Of a stretch of DNA of 64,000 bases, positions 18,638-31,026 are shown piece by piece; the first letter of the stretch is position 1, and every line of letters begins with the position of its first letter. Source of the DNA: Escherichia coli (GTDB lineage Bacteria; Pseudomonadota; Gammaproteobacteria; Enterobacterales; Enterobacteriaceae); the NCBI RefSeq assembly GCF_009931435.1, contig NZ_CP043414.1. The stretch is one strand, 5' to 3'. Both the position numbers and the translations under genes were made by a program. The notes under the pieces were generated by a model, which searched no databases, was not told the origin of the DNA, and saw nothing but the letters and a program-made list of their open reading frames with translations.

Positions 18638-18793
18638 TTACTCCTCAGGTTCGTAAGCTGTGAAGACAGCGACCTCCGTCTGGCCGGTTCGGATTCGTAC
18701 CTCGCAGAGGTCTTTCCTCGTTACCAGTGCCGTCACAATGACGGTTAAACAGATGACGATCAGGGCGATTAACATCGCCTTTTGCTGCTTCAT
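18638..18793 (-). CDS. hok: Hok/Gef-family type I toxin (HokD/RelF-like, 51 aa)
   Basis: MKQQKAMLIALIVICLTVIVTALVTRKDLCEVRIRTGQTEVAVFTAYEPEE matches recalled HokD/RelF; the ORF track extends the frame upstream. The sok antisense RNA is expected around 18.8-18.95 kb but is not mapped. Confidence 0.85.
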   Translation of the reverse strand: MKQQKAMLIALIVICLTVIVTALVTRKDLCEVRIRTGQTEVAVFTAYEPEE

Positions 18794-19640
18794 AGCCTGC
18801 TTCTCCTTGCCTTTCGGCACGTAAGAGGCTAACCTAGATTTGCCGTTCATAGATTGAGCCTCAGATTAATGTTAAGCGTCTTGCAGGACGCGTAATGTTA
18901 ACTGGGGCTTTTCTATATCTGCCTTTGGTGTTCATGCCTGAGACAGATAGCCTCAAGCACCCGCAGCCATTGTACTTAACTCCCGTTACCTCGCCAATAT
19001 AAAATCAATCAGAAAGGCGATCCATAAGGACAATAGCAAGACAATAAATTGCCATTACCCGCAATAGCCAGCGCACATTTGAGGACCAGCACGACAACTT
19101 TCTGTATCGGACGTACACCAGTCCTGATAAATACAAGGCGGTCTCATCAGTGATGAAATGCAACTATTGAGTACAGTTTCTCTGATTTTTCTGTAAAACA
19201 TGGAACACAACAACTAAATATAACTAGCACTTCTTAAGATGTACAAATTCAGAGTTAAGATAACGTAAGCAGTTTTCTCAAAACTAAGTGTAAATTTTTA
19301 ATGAAGAGCAGTGCTATGCTCCTGATCATATATTCATTGTTTGGAACTGGAGGAATATTTAGGTTGCTGGAGTGGTTGATTGAATTTAAATCAACTAAGA
19401 CAAAAACCAACAATTAAAGATATGTGGTATATCAGAAAACAACTATCCGTATATTACTACAGAATTAAATACTAGCAACAAAGCTGTCTTTATTGATTTT
19501 TTATCTGATATCGAAATAAATAAACATAAAATAACCAACTAATTAAAACAGAGACTCGACAATGAGCCTCTATCTATTGTAACAGCACTTCCAAATTTAT
19601 TTTAGTAAGATAATAGCATGGGGCATACTAGCCCCATCTT

Positions 19641-21143
19641 TTAAACCGTTTCATCAAGGAAATACTTAGACGAATCATCCTGTTTCGGTTGATATGTTTT
19701 TTTTGCAGAATTAAGAACTCTTCTTAGTTCTTTTCTTAACTCAGGTAAACGCTCCTGAAGAGGGTTAGAACACCATTGTGAAGGCAACCCTCTTATAATA
19801 GCTTCGGAACAAAGCGGTGAAATAAGTTTTTCCATTTGATAATAGAAAGTTTTTGCTCGACTTACACGCATTGTGATCCTTTTTATTACATCTCTTTCAG
19901 ACTCAATTCTAGCACTCAGATCTCTTAATCTACTCCATACCTTAGCATCAGCAATATATGTATCATAAAGCATACACTCTATAAACGTGAAATTACTAAT
20001 AAGTTCTTTTGCAATATACCCCCCCAGCCGAGAAGGAATGAAACTTGATGAAGCTGTTGGATCTCCGTGATTTACGGTGAACAAAAACCTTTTATTGCAT
20101 AAATCAACGAGAACTCGATGCGTGAAAGAGTCACCTATACCAATTAACCTTAACTTTTCAGTTATTACCGAACCATCGATTTGTCTGAATCCGGGATCGC
20201 TTGCATACGAAACGATAACATTAAGAATGTACAGCCTCAATAATTGCATTTGTGTCACAGCTAAATTCGAATCAAACGGGTTCGCAATAGTCGACGTTGA
20301 CTCGCTATAAGTCAACTCAGTACCCAGTAATATAGCTCTAAATGCCTCATGACGTGGAAGAAGATATCTTCCTTGTTCTCTGAAAATTTGTACTGCTTTA
20401 CCTGGACTCGTATACCCTCTTTCTAAGAACTCACGAGTCATACGTAATGCTAATCGAACATCATCCGTAGCAAGAACTTCAATACGTGTTCCAATCTCAC
20501 TTCCCAGCACAGACCCACTAATAATATCGACTAATTGTGATATATCATCCAATACAACTTTAGCGCCATTTTCTGCAATAAAATTTCCACTTTTATTACT
20601 TGTCATATACTTTACTAGTGCAAAGCGTTTTGCAATCACACTACTTATTCTCGGTGGATCTATTTGTATAACTTCAAAATCGAAAGCATCTATAGCAGGT
20701 GAGTTTTTATGTTTGATAAATGTAGACTGCCTCAATGAAAGTACTAAATTTAATGAAAGCGCTCTGGAAATTGAAAATGACTCGGTAAATATCCGGGACT
20801 GGATATCATCAAACTCGATCTGATCAACGTTATCAATAACAAGAAAAAAAGATGTCTCTTTTGTAACACGACTTATTATTTTATCAACATAAGGTTTTAT
20901 CTTTTTATATTGTTCATATAAAAAATCCGAGATTCTGGTATTTTTTTGATCCTCACTCAATAAAAAAAGAGGTCCTGATTTTATCGCCTCAATATCTTCT
21001 CGAAATGCATCAAATACAAAATCCTTATTACTCAAAACAGGATGCTTATTGATATATTCCAGAATTGATTTATAAATAAAATCGACTATTGAACTTTCTG
21101 ATGGATTATCTAGAAAGTCTATATGAACCCAATGCGGCGTCAA
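19641..21143 (-). CDS. 3' ORF of split nuclease-NTPase gene: Walker B-like FFLVIDNVD plus ~400-aa C-terminal region; track start is TTG and the frame is open further upstream
   Basis: Same strand as, and overlapping frame with, the upstream ORF across an A8 tract; hhhhDxxD motif ~100 aa into the ORF; AT-rich. Confidence 0.6.
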   Translation of the reverse strand: MTPHWVHIDFLDNPSESSIVDFIYKSILEYINKHPVLSNKDFVFDAFREDIEAIKSGPLFLLSEDQKNTRISDFLYEQYKKIKPYVDKIISRVTKETSFFLVIDNVDQIEFDDIQSRIFTESFSISRALSLNLVLSLRQSTFIKHKNSPAIDAFDFEVIQIDPPRISSVIAKRFALVKYMTSNKSGNFIAENGAKVVLDDISQLVDIISGSVLGSEIGTRIEVLATDDVRLALRMTREFLERGYTSPGKAVQIFREQGRYLLPRHEAFRAILLGTELTYSESTSTIANPFDSNLAVTQMQLLRLYILNVIVSYASDPGFRQIDGSVITEKLRLIGIGDSFTHRVLVDLCNKRFLFTVNHGDPTASSSFIPSRLGGYIAKELISNFTFIECMLYDTYIADAKVWSRLRDLSARIESERDVIKRITMRVSRAKTFYYQMEKLISPLCSEAIIRGLPSQWCSNPLQERLPELRKELRRVLNSAKKTYQPKQDDSSKYFLDETV

Positions 21144-21147
21144 GATA

Positions 21148-22146
21148 TCACATTGATTTGAAAAAAAACTCTTTTATTCTAACCTTTCTCATGTAATGAA
21201 GAAATGTTGTTTTACCTGCACCTACAGTCCCAAGTAACAAGATCGCGAGAGGTTTGTCATTCCTGACTTTTATTTTTTTCTTCCCTTTAACCTGAAACTT
21301 ATCAACTATTCTTTTTGTATCTTTATCATTAAGCCCTTTTAGTACTTCACCATTCAGCACACTTGAACGCCTACCTATATTCATTCTAATTTTACTATCG
21401 AATCTCATAGTTTCTGGTGTTGAAACATAACATTTATCAAAGGAGTCTTCATCCAAGTAAAGTATAGAATCAGAAAAAGCCAACCTTAATTCATCAGCAA
21501 TCAAATGATATATTGGATTATTTGTCTGTGTTCTGTTTTGTTGCGAATAAAAATTTCTTAATTTTCTAAATTCTATTTGATTTTCGACGCGACCTAAAAG
21601 TGCTGTTTCTAGACTTCCTGATATAACATTTTCACGACTAAGTAAATCATAGAATTCTTGATAATTATCATTTAAGCAATCTTCTAACGACCAGAACACA
21701 AGCGCTATTGAATCATTAAATTTGACATTGTCATGCCTCTGAGCTGCAAAACATGCCCATACATTTCCATTCGTAGCGACAGCATAATCTATACCAAATT
21801 TCCTGGCGTAATCTCTAGCTTGTATTATCGCTTCACCAAGATCACTTTGTAAAAAACTATTACTTAGCTTTATTTTTCTTTTTCCTGGAATTGTACTAAA
21901 GCTTGGCCCTGCCTTTTTAGCTTCAACAACAAGAGCAATATTAGCTGTTTTTAGTATATAATCAGCATAAGTTGTCAAACCATCTTCAGTCACATGCTCT
22001 TCTGGTTTTATATCACTATCAGTCCACATCAAGACTTCCTTTAATACCCGATCTATCACTTTTAGTCTTGTGGCTGCTTCATTTGCATTTTCTAATTGTA
22101 AATGATGATAAGCTGATAATATTTCCGAAATAAATGTTTTCTCCAT
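21148..22146 (-). CDS. 5' ORF of split nuclease-NTPase gene: N-terminal PD-(D/E)xK (HsdR-N/Mrr-like) nuclease domain plus Walker A P-loop
   Basis: N-terminus ANEAATRLKVIDRVL...YADYILKT...ALVVEAKK...QARDYA...YAVATNG (restriction-endonuclease-like fold); C-terminus LAILLLGTVGAGKTTFLHYM (GxxGxGKT), then a stop 22 codons later inside the homopolymer. Confidence 0.65.
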   Translation of the reverse strand: MEKTFISEILSAYHHLQLENANEAATRLKVIDRVLKEVLMWTDSDIKPEEHVTEDGLTTYADYILKTANIALVVEAKKAGPSFSTIPGKRKIKLSNSFLQSDLGEAIIQARDYARKFGIDYAVATNGNVWACFAAQRHDNVKFNDSIALVFWSLEDCLNDNYQEFYDLLSRENVISGSLETALLGRVENQIEFRKLRNFYSQQNRTQTNNPIYHLIADELRLAFSDSILYLDEDSFDKCYVSTPETMRFDSKIRMNIGRRSSVLNGEVLKGLNDKDTKRIVDKFQVKGKKKIKVRNDKPLAILLLGTVGAGKTTFLHYMRKVRIKEFFFKSM

Positions 22147-22856
22147 AGATTATTCTCTCTATAAAAAATAACGAAAATTTTTCTGATTAGTTTTACCGCA
22201 TTTAGTTACAATAACCTAGCTATGTCAAGTCTGATGTTATCCTAAATTTCATTTTTGTTATATTATCCTCTAATTCTTAAGGCACACGTTTGAAAAGCGT
22301 CGACTTTCTCCTGTATGCTCTGAAGGTATCATTTACTCTGATTTTTCACGCAGTGTGCCGGATAGTTTTCTGTCAGGATAGAGCCCTAGATGACACGGAT
22401 GACCGCTGATGACCTGAATATGATCATGTCGCTAACATTCGCCATGGGTAATATTATTAGCCAATCCCGCCCCATCTGTTCATTCTGCTCCTGAATGCCC
22501 CCCCCCCGAAGTCAGCAGACTATGGCCTCGTTGCTGACATGCTCAGAGCCAACTCCTTACCCCCTTACGTAGAAGCAATCTCAGGCACCATTAGTGATTA
22601 CGGTAACCGAGCAGTTGTATTACACCGAACCGACTACCGCTATCATCAACACCTATCTTTGGGGCATAAAAGCGTGGCATAAAGGAAGCAACTAGGCAGT
22701 GATTATGTAAGTACATCTGTAAAACGGACCATCCATTTTAAATATCCTCTGATCCCCCTCAATATCCACCTCTAGCACAAAGCGGACAACCACGCTAGCT
22801 CTCCCCTGTACCATGAAAATTTCAATTCACATATGTATTAATGCTCTTTAGTCTCT

Positions 22857-25120: not shown

Positions 25121-25546
25121 TTAGTGCATCACCACAGCATTTCCTGCCGGGCCACCACGATTCATCTGATTGAAACCGGCGATTGCCACTGCGACAAAAT
25201 CATCAGCGTCTCTCACCAGTCGTTCCCGCGTCTCCACCAACTCCCGAAAATAGACTGAACTGTGGCTGCGCATCCGGGCCACCAGCAGAGGTGGCATTGC
25301 TTTTTCGATCGCTGGTAACAACGCCTGAATTTTTTCAACCGCATCAGTAGTGTCTTTCTCCACCCAGCGGAAAATTTTCTGGGTATTACGAGCCAGGGCT
25401 TCTGGATGGCTGTCGTCGTACAGTTCCGGGGACGTCATTCCCAGTTCGAAATAAGCCCTGGTTATCTTGGCCGCCGGAACTTTTTCACCATCCGGACGCG
25501 CCCAAGCATTCATAGCCATGCGGATGTGTTCATGCTTGATTTTCAT
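25121..25546 (-). CDS. ydaT: YdaT-like protein (Rac-type, CII-position)
   Basis: 141 aa starting MKIKHEHI..., as recalled for Rac YdaT; follows the cro-like gene. Confidence 0.55.
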   Translation of the reverse strand: MKIKHEHIRMAMNAWARPDGEKVPAAKITRAYFELGMTSPELYDDSHPEALARNTQKIFRWVEKDTTDAVEKIQALLPAIEKAMPPLLVARMRSHSSVYFRELVETRERLVRDADDFVAVAIAGFNQMNRGGPAGNAVVMH

Positions 25547-25770
25547 GAATCATTCTTTCCTTCGTTCAAGGTGTTATCCTTCTTTTTGTAAAGTTCTGGG
25601 TTCAAAGATAATTTTCCCTTGGAGTATGCGGCAGCTTCCGCGGCCCTCCCCTTGGGAACTATTTCACCAGGACGTTTGCGCCACATGTATATAGCTTCAC
25701 GGGTTATCCCATAAAAATCGGCAACTCTCTGAACAGAGCCAAAAAACTGGACAAGTTCATCAACTCGCAT
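25543..25770 (-). CDS. Cro/YdaS-like HTH regulator
   Basis: 75-aa ORF divergent from the CI-like repressor across an operator-containing spacer. Confidence 0.6.
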   Translation of the reverse strand: MRVDELVQFFGSVQRVADFYGITREAIYMWRKRPGEIVPKGRAAEAAAYSKGKLSLNPELYKKKDNTLNEGKNDS

Positions 25771-25779
25771 TTCACCCTC

Positions 25780-25830
25780 CTAAAACTAAGTATTTTTAGA
25801 TTAAAGGATAATTTTTTTTAGGTCAATGCA
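25780..25830. promoter_or_regulatory. Right operator/promoter region between cro-like and cI-like genes (palindromes built on CTAAAA/TTTTAG)
   Basis: CTAAAACTAAGTATTTTTAG and TTTTAGgtcaatgcaatCTAAAA in a 92-bp divergent intergenic spacer. Confidence 0.5.
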
Positions 25831-25862
25831 ATCTAAAATAATTTATATTCAATTCACGGGAG

Positions 25863-26513
25863 ATGATGATGGAAAGCCTTGGCATTAGGCTTAAGAGACT
25901 CAGAAAAGACAAGGGACTGACCCAAGTCGAACTGGGCAAGCTTTCTGGCGTAACAGGGGTAACTATAGGGTACTGGGAGAAAGACCTAAACGAACCCGGT
26001 AGCAAAGCTCTTAGTAAATTAGCCCAAGCACTAGGAACTACTGAGTCCTATCTCCTATATGGAGTATCGTCTACTGAACCTACCCTTGTGCAGAACAATT
26101 CAGGCACCCAAATCCCCTATCTTTCATGGGGGGAAGCAATTTCTTTCCTAATTTTAGAAGGAGAGAAAACTATGGGAAATGCCGACAGAATCACCACATT
26201 CTTTGACGTCAAGGAGGGGGATTTTGCCGTTTCAATGCCTGATGACACTATGCACAACCCATCAGGGTCGCCAAGCATTCCGGTTGGTGCCACAGTGATC
26301 ATGAGGCCTAGAGAAAAATATAAAAATGGTAGTATCGTCGCTGTAATAGTCCCAGATCCGCTTACAAACGAACCATCTATGACTATAAAAAAATTAGTCA
26401 TCGACGGAAAACTCGTGTATTTAAGCCCCCTCAATCCTCGCTATCAATCGTCCTTACTGACACCTGAATGTAAAATTGTTGCTGTAGCAAAAGGTGTGCA
26501 GTTCAGCCTATAG
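25863..26513 (+). CDS. cI: CI-like repressor (N-terminal HTH plus C-terminal S24 LexA-like autopeptidase domain)
   Basis: 216 aa; LTQVELGKLSGVTGVTIGYWEK (HTH) and C-terminal VIMRP...GSIVAVIV...KKLVIDGKLVYLSPLNP; divergent from the cro-like gene. Confidence 0.85.
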   Translation: MMMESLGIRLKRLRKDKGLTQVELGKLSGVTGVTIGYWEKDLNEPGSKALSKLAQALGTTESYLLYGVSSTEPTLVQNNSGTQIPYLSWGEAISFLILEGEKTMGNADRITTFFDVKEGDFAVSMPDDTMHNPSGSPSIPVGATVIMRPREKYKNGSIVAVIVPDPLTNEPSMTIKKLVIDGKLVYLSPLNPRYQSSLLTPECKIVAVAKGVQFSL

Positions 26514-26536
26514 CTTCCACTTTGTTTTTCAATCAG

Positions 26537-26560
26537 AGGTCGGCTTTGTCGACCTTTTTT
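26537..26560 (+). terminator. Rho-independent terminator after cI-like gene (aggtcg...cgacct plus T6)
   Basis: Inverted repeat followed by TTTTTT. Confidence 0.55.
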
Positions 26561-26577
26561 AAATATATCTAGATCAC

Positions 26578-26611
26578 ACTTGACTATAAAACTAAATAGA
26601 TTTAGTTTTAT
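26578..26611 (+). promoter_or_regulatory. Putative left operator/promoter (pL/oL-like): -35 TTGACT overlapping the palindrome ATAAAACTAAAT-AG-ATTTAGTTTTAT
   Basis: 12-bp perfect inverted arms sharing the TAAAACTAA half-site with the right operator. Confidence 0.5.
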
Positions 26612-26786
26612 GGTATACCACCTCACCCCGCCCCACAGAACGCAGGGCAATACTTCGAGTTACCAGGCAGTGGTCAGGGGTTAAGTAGCCAGCCCGAGGC
26701 GTAAGAACATGACGGCAGGGTTCAACTTTAACTATGCAGCAGGTTTTTGTTCCGCTCCCCCGGCGTTAAGGGGAAATGAGGTCAAC

Positions 26787-26939
26787 ATGGATACTATCGA
26801 TCTTGGCAACAGTGAATCTCTGGTATGCGGCGTGTTTCCCAACCAGGACGGTACGTTCACCGCGATAACGTATACCAAAAGCAAAACGTTTAAAACCGAA
26901 ACTGGCGCGCATCGCTGGTTAGCCAGAAACACTGACTGA
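26787..26939 (+). CDS. Small early-left protein (hypothetical)
   Basis: ATG preceded by GAGG RBS (MDTIDLGNSESLV...); first ORF after the putative pL. Confidence 0.3.
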   Translation: MDTIDLGNSESLVCGVFPNQDGTFTAITYTKSKTFKTETGAHRWLARNTD

Positions 26940-26950
26940 TGAGGTTGACT

Positions 26951-27340
26951 ATGGAATTTAAAGAGTTACCAAAAGAAATCCAAGAAATTGCAGCACATAC
27001 ACTTCGTCAACGTCTGAACGAAGTTGCATTAGAAGCTGAAACGAAAAAAGACATTGATAATATGGCTCGTAATGTGCGCGATGCGTTTACCGGACTGTAT
27101 TCTGTTTCTGTTGAGGACAATAACATTCCTGACGAACAGGAAGAGAGTACAGACCCCCACAAATTCTGGAAATCTGTAGAGGTCATTGCAAAAGCCAAAC
27201 TACTGGAACTTAACAACTTATATCATCGTGAGAATGATGGTCGTCAATCTTTGCATCATCAGGGAGTCGCCACCCTGATAGCTCTAACGAAAGAGCAAGG
27301 CGAATATCATCCAGTGGCATTAAACGACACTGTGAAATAG
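26951..27340 (+). CDS. Hypothetical early-left protein
   Basis: 130-aa acidic ORF; unrecognised. Overlapped by a minus-strand ORF (27210-27587) that I consider less likely. Confidence 0.35.
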   Translation: MEFKELPKEIQEIAAHTLRQRLNEVALEAETKKDIDNMARNVRDAFTGLYSVSVEDNNIPDEQEESTDPHKFWKSVEVIAKAKLLELNNLYHRENDGRQSLHHQGVATLIALTKEQGEYHPVALNDTVK

Positions 27341-27906
27341 TCCATCCATGTTTACGGGATAGATAAAGATATATCGCTTCGAAACCATCGACATGGTTTG
27401 GATAGCCTTCCTCAGCAGCAAGGTTATCCCCAAAACATTCAAGAATATAATTTAAACGCGCTGTTTCATAATGAATCTTCCAGCGAGTCTGATTTAGTTT
27501 GCTGACCATTTTAATTTTATCCTCCATTGAGGTTACTGGTTGAGAATGGAGACCACACGTGACAGCGCGTGGTCGTGCGCCGGACACGGATAAGAATCCG
27601 GCACAAACAGTTTACTGAAAGGATATATCCCTGAAAAGTCAGGGCATAACGCGAAAGCGCACGGCGAAGTCATTCCTCCCTTTGTTGTGTACCACTGACA
27701 TCTTCGTCTGTGCGCTTCCGGTTGTGGCAATCCGCGAAATGGCGCGGCGGTAAGTATGGCGGGGTTATTCCTTCCCCGTTGAGGACACCGGGTTGTCAGG
27801 TTGACCATACGCTTAAGTGACAACCCCGCTGCAACAACCCATGTTGATTACCTTTTGGCGGGTATCCGTTTTTTGTTTTCCCTTGTGATACCCGCCCTTT
27901 TTAAAG

Positions 27907-28068
27907 TGAATTTTGTGATGCGGTGAATGCGGCTCAGCGCACGCGGAACAGTTAAAAAGGCCAGTTGACTTCCGTATTGGTTCTTATGGGTGGGTTCTCT
28001 GTATCCGGCGTTAATTATTAACTGGTTAACGTCACCTGGAGGCACCAGGCACCGCATCACAAAATTCA
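27907..28068. repeat. 19-bp perfect inverted repeat pair (TGAATTTTGTGATGCGGTG / CACCGCATCACAAAATTCA) flanking ~125 bp
   Basis: Arms at 27907-27925 and 28050-28068, read directly; the right arm ends ~18 bp before the next ORF start. Confidence 0.6.
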
Positions 28069-28085
28069 TTGTTGAGGATGCGATA

Positions 28086-28268
28086 ATGGAAACGTTATTA
28101 CCAAACGTCAATACGTCTGAAGGTTGTTTTGAAATTGGTGTCAGAATCAGTAACCCTGTATTTACTGAAGATGCCATTAATAAGAGAAAACACGAACGGG
28201 AGCTATTAAATCAAATATGCATTGTTTCAATGCTGGCCCGTTTACGCCTGATGCAAAAAGGACGATGA
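28086..28268 (+). CDS. Small hypothetical early protein
   Basis: METLLPNVNTSEGCFEIG...; 60 aa. Confidence 0.3.
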   Translation: METLLPNVNTSEGCFEIGVRISNPVFTEDAINKRKHERELLNQICIVSMLARLRLMQKGR

Positions 28269-28554: not shown

Positions 28555-31026
28555 ATGAGTAAAGTCTTTATTTGCGCCGCCATTCCGGACGAACAGGCAA
28601 TAAAGGAAGAAGGTGCAGTCGCTGTAGCCACTGCCATTGAAGCCGGCGACGAACGCCGCGCCCGAGCCAAATTTACCTGGCAATTCCTGGAGCAATATCC
28701 GGCTGCTCAGGACTGCGCTTATAAATTTCTTGTTTGCGAGGATAAACCCGGCATGCCCCGCCCTGCCATCGACTCCTGGGATACCGAATATATGCAGGAA
28801 AACTGCTGGGATGAGGAATCCGCTTCCTTTATTCCGGTCGAACCAGAATCCGATCCGATGAACGTCAATTTTGACAAGCTGTCCCCTGAAGTACAGAACG
28901 CGGTCCTGGTTAAGTTCGACACATGTGAAAACATCACCGTTGATATGGTTATTAGCGCACAGGAATTGTTGCAGGAAGACATGGCAACATTCGACGGACA
29001 TATCGTTGAAGCGTTGATGAAAATGCCAGAAGTTAACGCCATGTATCCGGAGCTTAAGTTGCACGCCATTGGGTGGGTTAAGCATAAATGTATTCCTGGT
29101 GCTAAATGGCCCGAAATTCAGGCAGAGATGCGCATCTGGAAAAAACGTCGCGAAGGTGAACGCAAGGAAACCGGAAAATACACGTCTGTTGTTGATCTCG
29201 CCCGCGCCAGAGCCAATCAACAGTACACTGACAATTCAACAGGAAAAATCAGCCCGGTCATTGCTGCCACTCATCGCGAATACAAGCAGACATGGAAAAC
29301 ACTGGATGACGAACTGGCCTACGCTCTCTGGCCTGGTGATGTGGATGCCGGAAACATTGACGGCAGCATCCATCGCTGGGCAAAAAATGAAGTTATCGAC
29401 AACGACCGCGAAGACTGGAAGCGTATCTCGGCATCAATGCGCAAACAGCCTGATGCCCTTCGCTACGACCGCCAGACTATTTTTGGCCTTGTCCGTGAAC
29501 GTCCGATCGACATTCACAAAGACCCTGTGGCACTGAACAAATACATTACTGAATACCTGACTACAAAGGGCGTGTTTGAAGATGAAGGAAGAAATCAGAG
29601 CGCAACTGATACTCTCTCGTCACCAGTACCAGAAACTGATGCAGTGGAAACGGCAATTCCGGACAACGAAAAAACCGAATGCAAAGTGGAAGTCGAACCA
29701 TCTGTAGAGCGTGAGGGGCCGTTCTACTTCCTCTTCACCGACAAGGATGGCGAAAAATATGGTCGCGCAAACAAACTTTCTGGTCTGAATAAGGCGCTGA
29801 CTGCAGGGGCTACTGAAATCACGAAAGAAGAATATTTTGCCCGTAAAAACGGTACATACTCAGGTTCACAACAAAATACTGGTGCATCTGACACGACCGC
29901 ACAACCAGAGCCGGTAAAAGTTACCGCTGACGAAGTAAACAAAATTATGCAGGCAGCCAATATCACCCAGCCTGACGCCGATAAGTTGCTTGCTGTATCA
30001 CGTGGTGAATTTGTTGAAGGGATTAGCGACCCGAATGATCCGAAATGGGTGAAGGGGATTGAAACCCGCGATTCAGTGAATCAGAACCAGCAAGAAACGG
30101 AACAGAACGACCAGAAAGCGGAACAAAACAGCCCAAATGCGTTACAAAACGAGCCAGAAACGAAACAACCTGAGCCAGTAGCGCAACAGGAAGCGGAAAA
30201 AGTCTGCACCGCCTGCGGTCAGACCGGCGGCGGCAACTGCCCTGATTGTGGTGCGGTGATGGGCGACGCAACATACCAAGAAACATTCGATGACAAGAAC
30301 CAGGTTGAAGTTCAGGAAGACGATTCGGAGAAAATGGAAGGCGCTGAACATCCACACAAAGAGAATGCTGGCAGCGCTCAGGATCACGCCAGCGATAGTG
30401 AAACTGGCGAGACGGCAGATCCCTTAATTACGGTGAACGGTCATCACGTTATCACATCCACCAGCAGGACGTGTGACCATCTAATGATCGACCTTGAAAC
30501 CATGGGAAAAAATCCTGATGCCCCGATTATCTCAATAGGTGCAATATTTTTCGATCCGCAAACCGGAGATATGGGACCGGAATTTAGTAAGACTATCGAT
30601 CTGGAAACTGCTGGCGGAGTCATTGATCGGGACACCATTAAATGGTGGCTTAAACAATCACGCGAAGCGCAATCTGCCATTATGACCGATGAAATCCCGT
30701 TAGATGATGCACTGTTACAATTGCGGGAATTTATCGACGAAAACTCCGGTGAATTTTTTGTTCAGGTCTGGGGAAATGGAGCCAACTTCGACAACACGAT
30801 TTTGCGCCGTTCATACGAACGGCAGGGGATCCCCTGCCCGTGGCGTTACTACAACGATCGCGATGTACGCACAATCGTTGAGCTGGGGAAAGCCATAGAC
30901 TTCGATGCCAGAACGGCTATTCCATTCGAAGGTGAGCGCCATAATGCACTTGATGACGCCCGTTACCAGGCAAAATACGTTTCAGCAATCTGGCAAAAAC
31001 TGATCCCGAATCCGGTTGATTTTTAA
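28555..31026 (+). CDS. Large prophage exonuclease: RecE-like N-terminal/central region fused to a C-terminal DEDDh (DnaQ-like) 3'-5' exonuclease domain
   Basis: 823 aa; central DADKLLAVSRGEFVEGISDPNDPKWVKGIETRD resembles recalled Rac RecE; C-terminal motifs MIDLETMG, NGANFD, HNALDDARY = DEDDh exo I-III; Cys cluster CTACGQ...CPDCG. Confidence 0.65.
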   Translation: MSKVFICAAIPDEQAIKEEGAVAVATAIEAGDERRARAKFTWQFLEQYPAAQDCAYKFLVCEDKPGMPRPAIDSWDTEYMQENCWDEESASFIPVEPESDPMNVNFDKLSPEVQNAVLVKFDTCENITVDMVISAQELLQEDMATFDGHIVEALMKMPEVNAMYPELKLHAIGWVKHKCIPGAKWPEIQAEMRIWKKRREGERKETGKYTSVVDLARARANQQYTDNSTGKISPVIAATHREYKQTWKTLDDELAYALWPGDVDAGNIDGSIHRWAKNEVIDNDREDWKRISASMRKQPDALRYDRQTIFGLVRERPIDIHKDPVALNKYITEYLTTKGVFEDEGRNQSATDTLSSPVPETDAVETAIPDNEKTECKVEVEPSVEREGPFYFLFTDKDGEKYGRANKLSGLNKALTAGATEITKEEYFARKNGTYSGSQQNTGASDTTAQPEPVKVTADEVNKIMQAANITQPDADKLLAVSRGEFVEGISDPNDPKWVKGIETRDSVNQNQQETEQNDQKAEQNSPNALQNEPETKQPEPVAQQEAEKVCTACGQTGGGNCPDCGAVMGDATYQETFDDKNQVEVQEDDSEKMEGAEHPHKENAGSAQDHASDSETGETADPLITVNGHHVITSTSRTCDHLMIDLETMGKNPDAPIISIGAIFFDPQTGDMGPEFSKTIDLETAGGVIDRDTIKWWLKQSREAQSAIMTDEIPLDDALLQLREFIDENSGEFFVQVWGNGANFDNTILRRSYERQGIPCPWRYYNDRDVRTIVELGKAIDFDARTAIPFEGERHNALDDARYQAKYVSAIWQKLIPNPVDF

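Follow-up and report, generated by a model that had tools for sequence, protein, structure and literature searches.

Predicted CTAA-N6-TTAG operators of the repressor-Cro switch in an Escherichia coli lambdoid prophage

The 64,000-nucleotide stretch of Escherichia coli DNA analysed here (contig NZ_CP043414.1 of assembly GCF_009931435.1; hereafter the window, with position 1 as its first letter) carries, at about 25.1-28.3 kb, the early-control region and immunity switch of a lambdoid prophage. A repressor with HTH_3 (helix-turn-helix, HTH) and Peptidase_S24 (S24) domains and a divergently encoded Cro of the P22_Cro family very probably act in this switch on dyads of the form CTAA-N6-TTAG that lie on both sides of the repressor gene, a reading drawn from sequence comparison. 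The design is an ordinary lambdoid one, and the operator sequence is apparently undescribed and appears to constitute a new specificity. Gene order and domain content fit a cI/cro module, at whose centre stand two genes:

25543..25770, minus strand: cro-like gene, 75 amino acids (Pfam P22_Cro, E = 1.2e-9)
25869..26513, plus strand: repressor gene (Pfam HTH_3, 2e-12, and Peptidase_S24, 1e-10)

The repressor open reading frame (ORF) opens at 25863 and the protein has 214 amino acids counted from its third ATG, the length that PGAP also gives in relatives. Its N-terminal domain matches P22 c2 structures and its C-terminal domain matches lambda cI. A first-pass annotation of this DNA, made from the letters and their ORFs, had called the gene a CI-like repressor flanked by related palindromic operators; the repressor call holds, the gene between the sites having the domains just named and diverging from a P22_Cro-family gene across a regulatory spacer of 98 bp.

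Exact copies of CTAA-N6-TTAG occur only twice in the 64 kb, at 25786-25799 and 26592-26605, so that one copy flanks each end of the repressor gene. With one core mismatch, ATAA-N6-TTAG at 25808-25821 and CTAA-N6-TTAT at 25833-25846 also qualify, and with two, TTAA-N6-CTAG at 26559-26572 does as well. Aligned with each other, the sites on the cro side and on the far side form a direct repeat of 27 nt at 78% identity, and a repeat search related the three spacer stretches to one another as imperfect inverted repeats. The element TAAAACTAA is found four times in the 64 kb against an expectation of 0.43, and three of the four copies are at operator sites; the fourth, at 22187, was considered as a further operator, has no partner half-site and was treated as chance. 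We also trained a weight matrix on nine sites from two distant loci only (L051 and L052) and scanned the window with it, using 200 shuffles as the control. Its three best hits in the window all exceed the shuffle maximum of 19.4, and they are OR1, OL1 and OR3 of the predicted sites listed here:

25786..25799 (22 bp with flanks, 25782-25803): OR1, core CTAAGTATTTTTAG, predicted; exact match, score 27.4, ranked first
25808..25821: OR2, core ATAATTTTTTTTAG, predicted, weak; score 14.6, ranked sixth
25833..25846: OR3, core CTAAAATAATTTAT, predicted; score 21.9, ranked third and above every shuffle
26559..26572: OL2, degenerate (TTAAATATATCTAG), predicted; 33 bp upstream of OL1, outside the matrix top 20
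26592..26605 (22 bp with flanks, 26588-26609): OL1, core CTAAATAGATTTAG, predicted; exact match, score 25.6, ranked second

The centres of OR1, OR2 and OR3 fall at 25792.5, 25814.5 and 25839.5, in steps of 22 and 25 bp, and the far side has two sites. This pattern of sites is not a product of chance. A further matrix hit at 21566 (17.7) was rejected as an operator and treated as chance: it lies inside an ORF, in a block of 33-36% GC, and below the shuffle maximum. The data support as the predicted binding unit the 14-bp dyad CTAA-N6-TTAG with A-rich and T-rich flanks, for which the extended consensus reads approximately aaaaCTAArtN4TTAGattt.

Every sequence quoted in the first-pass annotation is present where it was placed: CTAAAACTAAGTATTTTTAG on the cro side at 25780-25799, TTTTAG-N11-CTAAAA at 25816-25838 in the divergent spacer, and the perfect 12-bp arms ATAAAACTAAAT and ATTTAGTTTTAT at 26586-26597 and 26600-26611 with AG between them, which together make a 26-bp palindrome (26586-26611) around OL1. 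In the repeat search these far-side arms extend to 15 nt at 93% complementarity. They do lie just after the repressor terminator, a hairpin and T-run directly behind the stop codon. They had also been said to overlap the TTGACT −35 element at 26580-26585; this hexamer adjoins the perfect arms, and only the extended imperfect arms enter it, by 3 nt. The proposed oR/oL arrangement is likewise seen, with related dyads in the divergent spacer and again at the TTGACT promoter past the terminator.

How these sequences vary among relatives bears directly on which of them form the unit of recognition. We aligned the window with three relatives (86-89% DNA identity) and then with 50 IMG/VR loci, and counted patterns over 51 distinct combinations of oR and oL:

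CTAA-N6-TTAG in oR: 48/51
CTAA-N6-TTA(G/T) in oL: 49/51
−35 hexamer, 6 nt, then CTAA in oL: 49/51
TTTTAG-N11-CTAAAA in oR: 45/51
CTAAAA-N8-TTTTAG in oR: 8/51
perfect 12-bp arms in oL: 8/51

Were the palindromes themselves the true units (the 20-bp CTAAAA-N8-TTTTAG, TTTTAG-N11-CTAAAA and the 26-bp oL palindrome), one would expect all three in the window, where they are indeed present, and the frequency of the N11 pattern among the variants would agree with it. The other two patterns, however, are kept in only eight combinations each. On the cro side the left arm CTAAAA is lost through an indel of one base or through substitutions that leave CTAAGTATTTTTAG intact, and the 20-bp element has its centre 3 bp too far to the left. 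The perfect arms are specific to one subtype; the far side reads ATAAAACTAAATACTTTTAGATTTAT in most subtypes and CAAAACTAAATATTCTTATATTCAT in one. The N11 element, although conserved, is not one site: it joins the right half of OR2 to the left half of OR3, neighbouring half-sites that bracket a shared −35 region, and nothing at oL corresponds to it, the gap there being 19 nt. In addition, the three elements differ in spacing and place their half-sites in opposite orientations, so that one symmetric dimer could not read them all. Two of the three are rejected as binding units on the 51-variant comparison, and the proposal as a whole is very improbable. Of the binding motif predicted at first pass the shared dyad sites thus remain, and the boundaries of the unit shift from the longer palindromes to CTAA-N6-TTAG.

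The CTAA-N6-TTAG motif is also found well beyond these close variants. A protein search returned family members from Salmonella (68% identity), Symbiopectobacterium (54%), Yersinia (50%), Arsenophonus, Sodalis, Xenorhabdus (46%) and Morganella (42%), and six loci of family members were examined. In 6/6 one copy of the motif adjoins the start codon of cro, a second lies 47-49 bp beyond it, and a third comes 6 nt after a −35 hexamer past the repressor gene; in 6/6, too, the gene diverging from the repressor is of the P22_Cro family. Loci from Salmonella, Symbiopectobacterium, Yersinia and Morganella and from two metagenome contigs have sites with 0-1 core mismatches at corresponding positions. 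An equivalent of OR1 beside the cro start and the position of OL1 are conserved in all relatives. The distance from OR1 to OR3 is 47-49 bp in every relative, OR2 is 22-24 bp from OR1 in most, and OL2 is 33-35 bp from OL1, with the homologous OL2 scoring 15-28 in relatives. In locus L051, whose repressor is 46% identical, the spacer holds three perfect CTAA-N6-TTAG sites at intervals of 24 and 25 bp, and one more perfect site is found inside the downstream promoter TTGCAT-17-TAGATT (PL); L052 (52%) has the same layout with 0-1 core mismatches, and both loci have a similar small ORF diverging from the repressor gene. The first-pass annotation had named absence of the palindromes from homologous immunity regions as one finding that would speak against it, and we find the motif at the same places at 42-100% repressor identity. 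The neighbouring CII-type gene is of the YdaT type in E. coli and Salmonella and of the Phage_CP76 type in Yersinia and Morganella; since this neighbour varies while the motif stays, the motif follows the repressor/Cro pair. Within the repressor the HTH segment GV(S/T)GV(T/A)(I/V)GYWEKDLNEP hardly varies from one family member to another, whereas mean column identity over the whole protein is 63%.

The predicted sites interlock with candidate promoter elements of the early promoters PR and PL and of the repressor maintenance promoter, PRM:

25798..25803, minus strand: PR −10, TAATCT, predicted from sequence, 17 nt from the −35
25821..25826, minus strand: PR −35, TTGACC, predicted
25844..25849, plus strand: PRM −10, TATATT, putative
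26535..26560, plus strand: intrinsic terminator of the repressor transcript, 10-bp stem and T-run; −13 kcal/mol, z = −2.8, stem conserved in relatives
26580..26585, plus strand: PL −35, TTGACT, as read from the sequence
26603..26608, plus strand: PL −10, TAGTTT, putative; 17-nt spacer, formed by the right half-site of OL1

Among the 38 unique variants compared within E. coli, the PR −35 TTGACC and OR3 together with the PRM −10 TATATT are 100% invariant, and OR1 and OR2 are more conserved than the surrounding short spacers and the coding sequence. The TTGA of the PR −35 is kept in all distant loci, the homologous PR −10 position reads TAATAT in L058, and relatives read TAGATT or TATATT at the PL −10 position. 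On the plus strand the bases of the PR −35 read GGTCAA at the position of the PRM −35. Because this fits a −35 element poorly, PRM probably depends on an activator. At both PL and PRM the −10 hexamer is supplied by the right half-site, TTAG(A/T)TT.

This double use could be turned into a different account, in which the A/T-rich repeats are promoter architecture (−10-like hexamers and UP-like tracts) and TTAGATT is conserved as a −10. The region is A/T-rich, and the right half-sites of OL1 and OR3 and a flank of OR1 do coincide with predicted −10 hexamers. However, conservation extends to the left half-sites CTAA, which play no part in a promoter, at exactly 6 bp from TTAG, in five sites per genome and across genera; OR2 sits in the spacer of a promoter; dyad symmetry does not characterise promoters; and the A/T-rich block at 19-22 kb yields only sub-threshold matrix hits. 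We consider this account very improbable.

A second recognition sequence in the module belongs to the YdaT-type protein:

25536..25553, minus strand: YdaT-box ATGATTCATGAAAATCAA, overlapping the cro stop codon and the ydaT start codon

This box is the best match in the 64 kb to TTGATT-N6-AATCAA and is identical to the DNase-footprinted YdaT-box of Rac, from which YdaT activates a reverse promoter toward the repressor gene (PMC11879457). That such another regulator (the CII-like YdaT, or a nucleoid protein of the host) binds the dyads in place of repressor and Cro is barely credible: YdaT of Rac does also bind the racR-ydaS intergenic region (PMC11879457), but here its recognition sequence is found only at 25536-25553 and not in the spacer, loci of the Phage_CP76 type keep the CTAA-N6-TTAG sites with no YdaT, and the CP-933P YdaT is reported not to bind the repressor-cro spacer (PMC11879457).

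Genes, sites, site statistics and conservation are observations, and from them we infer binding, start points, activation and cooperativity in a switch of the following kind. The HTH_3/S24 repressor and the P22_Cro-family Cro would each recognise the CTAA-N6-TTAG dyad as dimers. OR1 would cover the PR −10 and the predicted start site, OR3 would cover the PRM −10, and OL1 would fill the PL spacer and −10 (TTGACT-17-TAGTTT). OR2, inside the PR spacer, would have its centre close to −41.5 with respect to the predicted start of PRM, the position from which lambda repressor at OR2 activates PRM. In the lysogen, repressor at OR1 and OR2 would block PR and so keep cro, the CII-like ydaT and the replication genes off, and repressor at OR2 would probably also help the weak PRM; repressor at OL1 would block PL and keep ydfA, dicB, the exonuclease gene and int off. 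Repressor at OR3, or Cro, would shut PRM, with Cro acting on the same sites.

Several points weigh against this picture of the switch. OR2 (14.6) and OL2 (<9) are weak in the window, and the T-run of OR2 has 7 or 9 T instead of 8 in L013, L023, L028, L031 and L036, which alters the half-site spacing; these length differences could be real variation or homopolymer sequencing error. The PR (TAATCT) and PL (TAGTTT) −10 hexamers match the consensus at only 3/6 positions, the forms in relatives (TAGATT, TATATT, TAATAT) being better, and a promoter scan of the window reported neither PR nor PL; the two hits that it did return are probably chance. The matrix test is not fully independent, since it was this window that first showed the core by which its training sites were chosen. 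Repressor and Cro invariably occur together, and sequence alone therefore cannot assign site preference to either. Finally, our literature search found no binding, footprint or transcript-start data for this repressor, and in the work on DicA operators, P22 operators and two related phage isolates we found no description of its sites.

The layout is most readily compared with that of lambda. Both have a divergent repressor/cro pair, three spacer dyads over back-to-back promoters, and a second operator set at PL, downstream of and codirectional with the repressor gene; in both the middle operator lies beside a weak maintenance promoter, and the repressor here combines an HTH with an S24-like C-terminal domain related to that of lambda cI. 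The operator sequence, in contrast, is unrelated, with sites of 14 bp (about 22 bp with flanks) against 17 bp in lambda; only two OL sites are recognisable, and the distance between OL and OR is 0.8 kb as opposed to 2.4 kb. Neither rex genes nor an N gene is present, Cro is of the P22_Cro family, a YdaT-type protein takes the CII role, and the S24 domain is without the Ser and the Ala-Gly. The first-pass annotation had expected a specificity different from that of lambda, and this is what we find; the specificity also differs from that of P22 and phage 21, whose annotated operators score at most 12 against 22-27 for OR1, OL1 and OR3.

P22 c2 and phage 21 cI are the closest characterised and structurally solved relatives of the repressor (31-32% identity), and their Cro is of the same family. 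Their operators share a register with those described here, a [T/C]TAA tetranucleotide lying 4-7 bp from the dyad with a non-contacted centre; the P22 repressor has an 18-bp site whose central 4 bp are uncontacted (PMC4267663). The sequence type nonetheless differs, being TTAAG-N4-CTTAA (ATTTAAG-N4-CTTAAAT) in P22 and phage 21 and CTAA-N6-TTAG here, and the cro-repressor spacer of the prophage contains no TTAAG-N4-CTTAA site. The recognition helix reads SNVAISQ in P22 c2 and TGVTIGY here. Downstream of PL, nutL and an N-like gene follow in P22 and phage 21, whereas this prophage has a different leader. The operators of phage 434, ACAA-N6-TTGT, have the same geometry of a tetranucleotide, N6 and its inversion with a different tetranucleotide; phage 434 was not among the matches listed in a protein search of the phage collection.

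The Qin prophage, with DicA and DicC, resembles the present module in having a repressor gene followed by a repressed promoter of a ydfA...dicB operon and a divergent cro-like gene, and it has a weak maintenance promoter that needs an activator (PMC3441716; bioRxiv 10.1101/2023.04.14.536235). The N-terminal HTH of the repressor is about 43% identical to that of a phage DicA. DicA itself has 135 amino acids and no S24-like domain, unlike the 214-residue repressor described here, and its proven operator Oc, TTGTTAG-TCATAA-CTAACAA (TTGTTAGTCATAACTAACAA; PMC3441716), has TTAG where the present family has CTAA, in the same register. The Rac (RacR-YdaS-YdaT) and CP-933P (PaaR2-YdaS-YdaT) modules share with ours a YdaT-type CII analogue after cro and an identical YdaT-box over the ydaT start; RacR and PaaR2, in contrast, are unrelated in type to an HTH/S24 repressor, and the operators therefore differ.

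Judged from the alignments, the label CI-like needs a caveat, as the S24 domain has neither the canonical Ser nucleophile nor the Ala-Gly cleavage site. In a HMMER alignment the catalytic-Ser motif reads DDTM, with Thr, where lambda cI has GNSM, and SWGEAISF aligns with the lambda cleavage region SHVQAGMF, with Ala-Ile in place of Ala-Gly; LexA-type relatives and distant family members likewise have the Ser and the Ala-Gly. The altered positions are repressor residues about 88-93 and 124-128, and the Gly of the scissile bond, Ile here, is Met, Thr or Lys in relatives. The Lys general base is kept: KKL is invariant in the family and aligns with the lambda FKKL that contains K192. Across the family, members of the Morganella type keep VQAG and GDSM, and the Xenorhabdus clade keeps NDSM and has DDAL. 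DDTM without Ala-Gly is found in the whole Escherichia/Salmonella/Yersinia/Sodalis clade, and the Thr form occurs in Arsenophonus members as well. With Ser replaced by Thr and Ala-Gly lost, canonical RecA-stimulated self-cleavage is doubtful. No antirepressor is annotated by PGAP in the prophage of strain A35 that carries a 99.9%-identical module.

Downstream of OL1 the transcript from PL would open with a conserved leader:

26615..26720, plus strand: conserved PL leader, a hairpin with loop CAATACTTCGAGTTA, followed by TAAGTAGCCAGCCCGAGGCGTAAGAACATGACGGC

More than 120 IMG/VR contigs carry the leader core, which there follows many different immunity modules, and conservation of the leader starts almost exactly at the predicted PL start (about 26615). 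A 15-nt conserved loop CAATACYTCGAGTTA is followed by a near-invariant 35-mer TAAGTAGCCAGCCYGAGGCRTAYGAACATGAMGGC. In a loop-anchored ungapped count the stem pairs covary, the closing G:C changing to A:T and the inner positions being tandem G·A or Watson-Crick; RNAalifold applied to MAFFT alignments of the leader gave two inconsistent, weak consensus folds. The leader has no Rfam match at gathering or E-value thresholds. We also considered and rejected a put RNA of the HK022 kind: no similarity to the HK022 immunity/put region was found, and a distant blastn search gave no HK639 or HK022 hit. The window holds a single leader copy and hence no putL/putR-like pair, and no N gene follows the leader.

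Taking repressor and leader together, we propose only tentatively, and think it rather doubtful that all parts will hold, that prophages of this widespread clade, whose repressors retain the S24 fold and the Lys but have the Thr form, are not induced by RecA cleavage, or else undergo Thr-Lys cleavage at a non-canonical site, and that the PL leader is a cis-acting, protein-independent antitermination or processing RNA. In the first of these cases, induction would take place via an antirepressor or another route instead of RecA-stimulated self-cleavage.

Some further observations concern the leader. Its invariant segment contains an ATG at 26709 preceded by GAGG, which in the window is fused in frame to ydfA (26709-26786 stretch) to give a 76-amino-acid ORF. 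In relatives the ORF from this ATG runs for 6 to about 20 codons, of which only the first four are conserved, and to judge from these sequences the leader ORF is not a conserved protein. At about 26610-26620, and in L062-L181, there is a mosaic boundary: upstream of 'ATACCA(A/C)CC' the sequence differs by immunity type, and downstream it is shared. Exchange of the immunity module thus seems to take place exactly at the PL start predicted here. Two same-strand copies of a PL-type leader occur in L052, at 408-531 and 2244-2367, each followed by a similar small ORF, which suggests a duplicated or tandem early-left region. The distant leaders of L052 (about 2375-2395) and L056 (about 2400-2415) have a boxA-like CGCTCTTTAA after the conserved core; there is none in the E. 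coli version in the window.

The remaining genes of the module and its surroundings are as follows:

25121..25546, minus strand: ydaT-like gene, second in the PR operon, putative functional CII analogue (Pfam YdaT_toxin, E = 3e-10)
26787..26939, plus strand: ydfA-like gene (DUF1391), first after PL (Pfam DUF1391, 2.5e-27)
28086..28268, plus strand: dicB (Pfam DicB, 1.6e-37)
downstream of PL, plus strand: DUF1482 gene (Pfam DUF1482, 1.2e-22)
28555..31026, plus strand: large exonuclease gene (Pfam Rv2179c-like exonuclease, 1.6e-67)

Replication-type genes are found on the minus strand together with cro and the ydaT-like gene, whose copy in strain A35 is named 'toxin YdaT family protein' by PGAP. 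The 1.9-kb module is present at ≥80% coverage in 470 of 5426 complete E. coli genomes (about 9%), O157:H7 included, and in two induced-phage records; in strain A35 the 99.9%-identical copy lies within a prophage integrated beside yccA. An identical repressor protein is encoded on at least 999 contigs, under database names that are generic only (e.g. 'LexA family protein').

In Qin, dicF precedes dicB. At Rfam gathering thresholds the whole window yields no match to the DicF small RNA, although dicB is present, and this includes the 27340-28086 stretch before dicB. Elsewhere in the window, an A/T-rich insert at 19641-22146 on the minus strand (33-36% GC) consists of two adjacent ORFs of 332 and 500 amino acids, the first with a P-loop-like GTVGAGKTT near its end. 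PADLOC and Pfam returned weak restriction-endonuclease-like matches only, and the strain A35 relative has different genes at the same location; the insert may be defence cargo. At 18638-18962 an Rfam match to the sok antitoxin RNA (105 bits) lies over a 70-amino-acid hok-like ORF, and this segment is a hok/sok-type toxin-antitoxin cassette within the prophage.

The design itself is textbook lambdoid and will not surprise a specialist. What the analysis adds is a testable operator consensus, CTAA-N6-TTAG, together with a map of the sites, for a family of repressors frequent among E. coli prophages, where its annotation is only generic. The promoter predicted to be silenced drives dicB, which encodes a cell-division inhibitor, together with recombination and excision genes, and the map indicates which bases might be mutated to derepress these prophages or to lock them. 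The recognition helix and the motif, common to repressors from several genera, predict a broad cross-immunity group.

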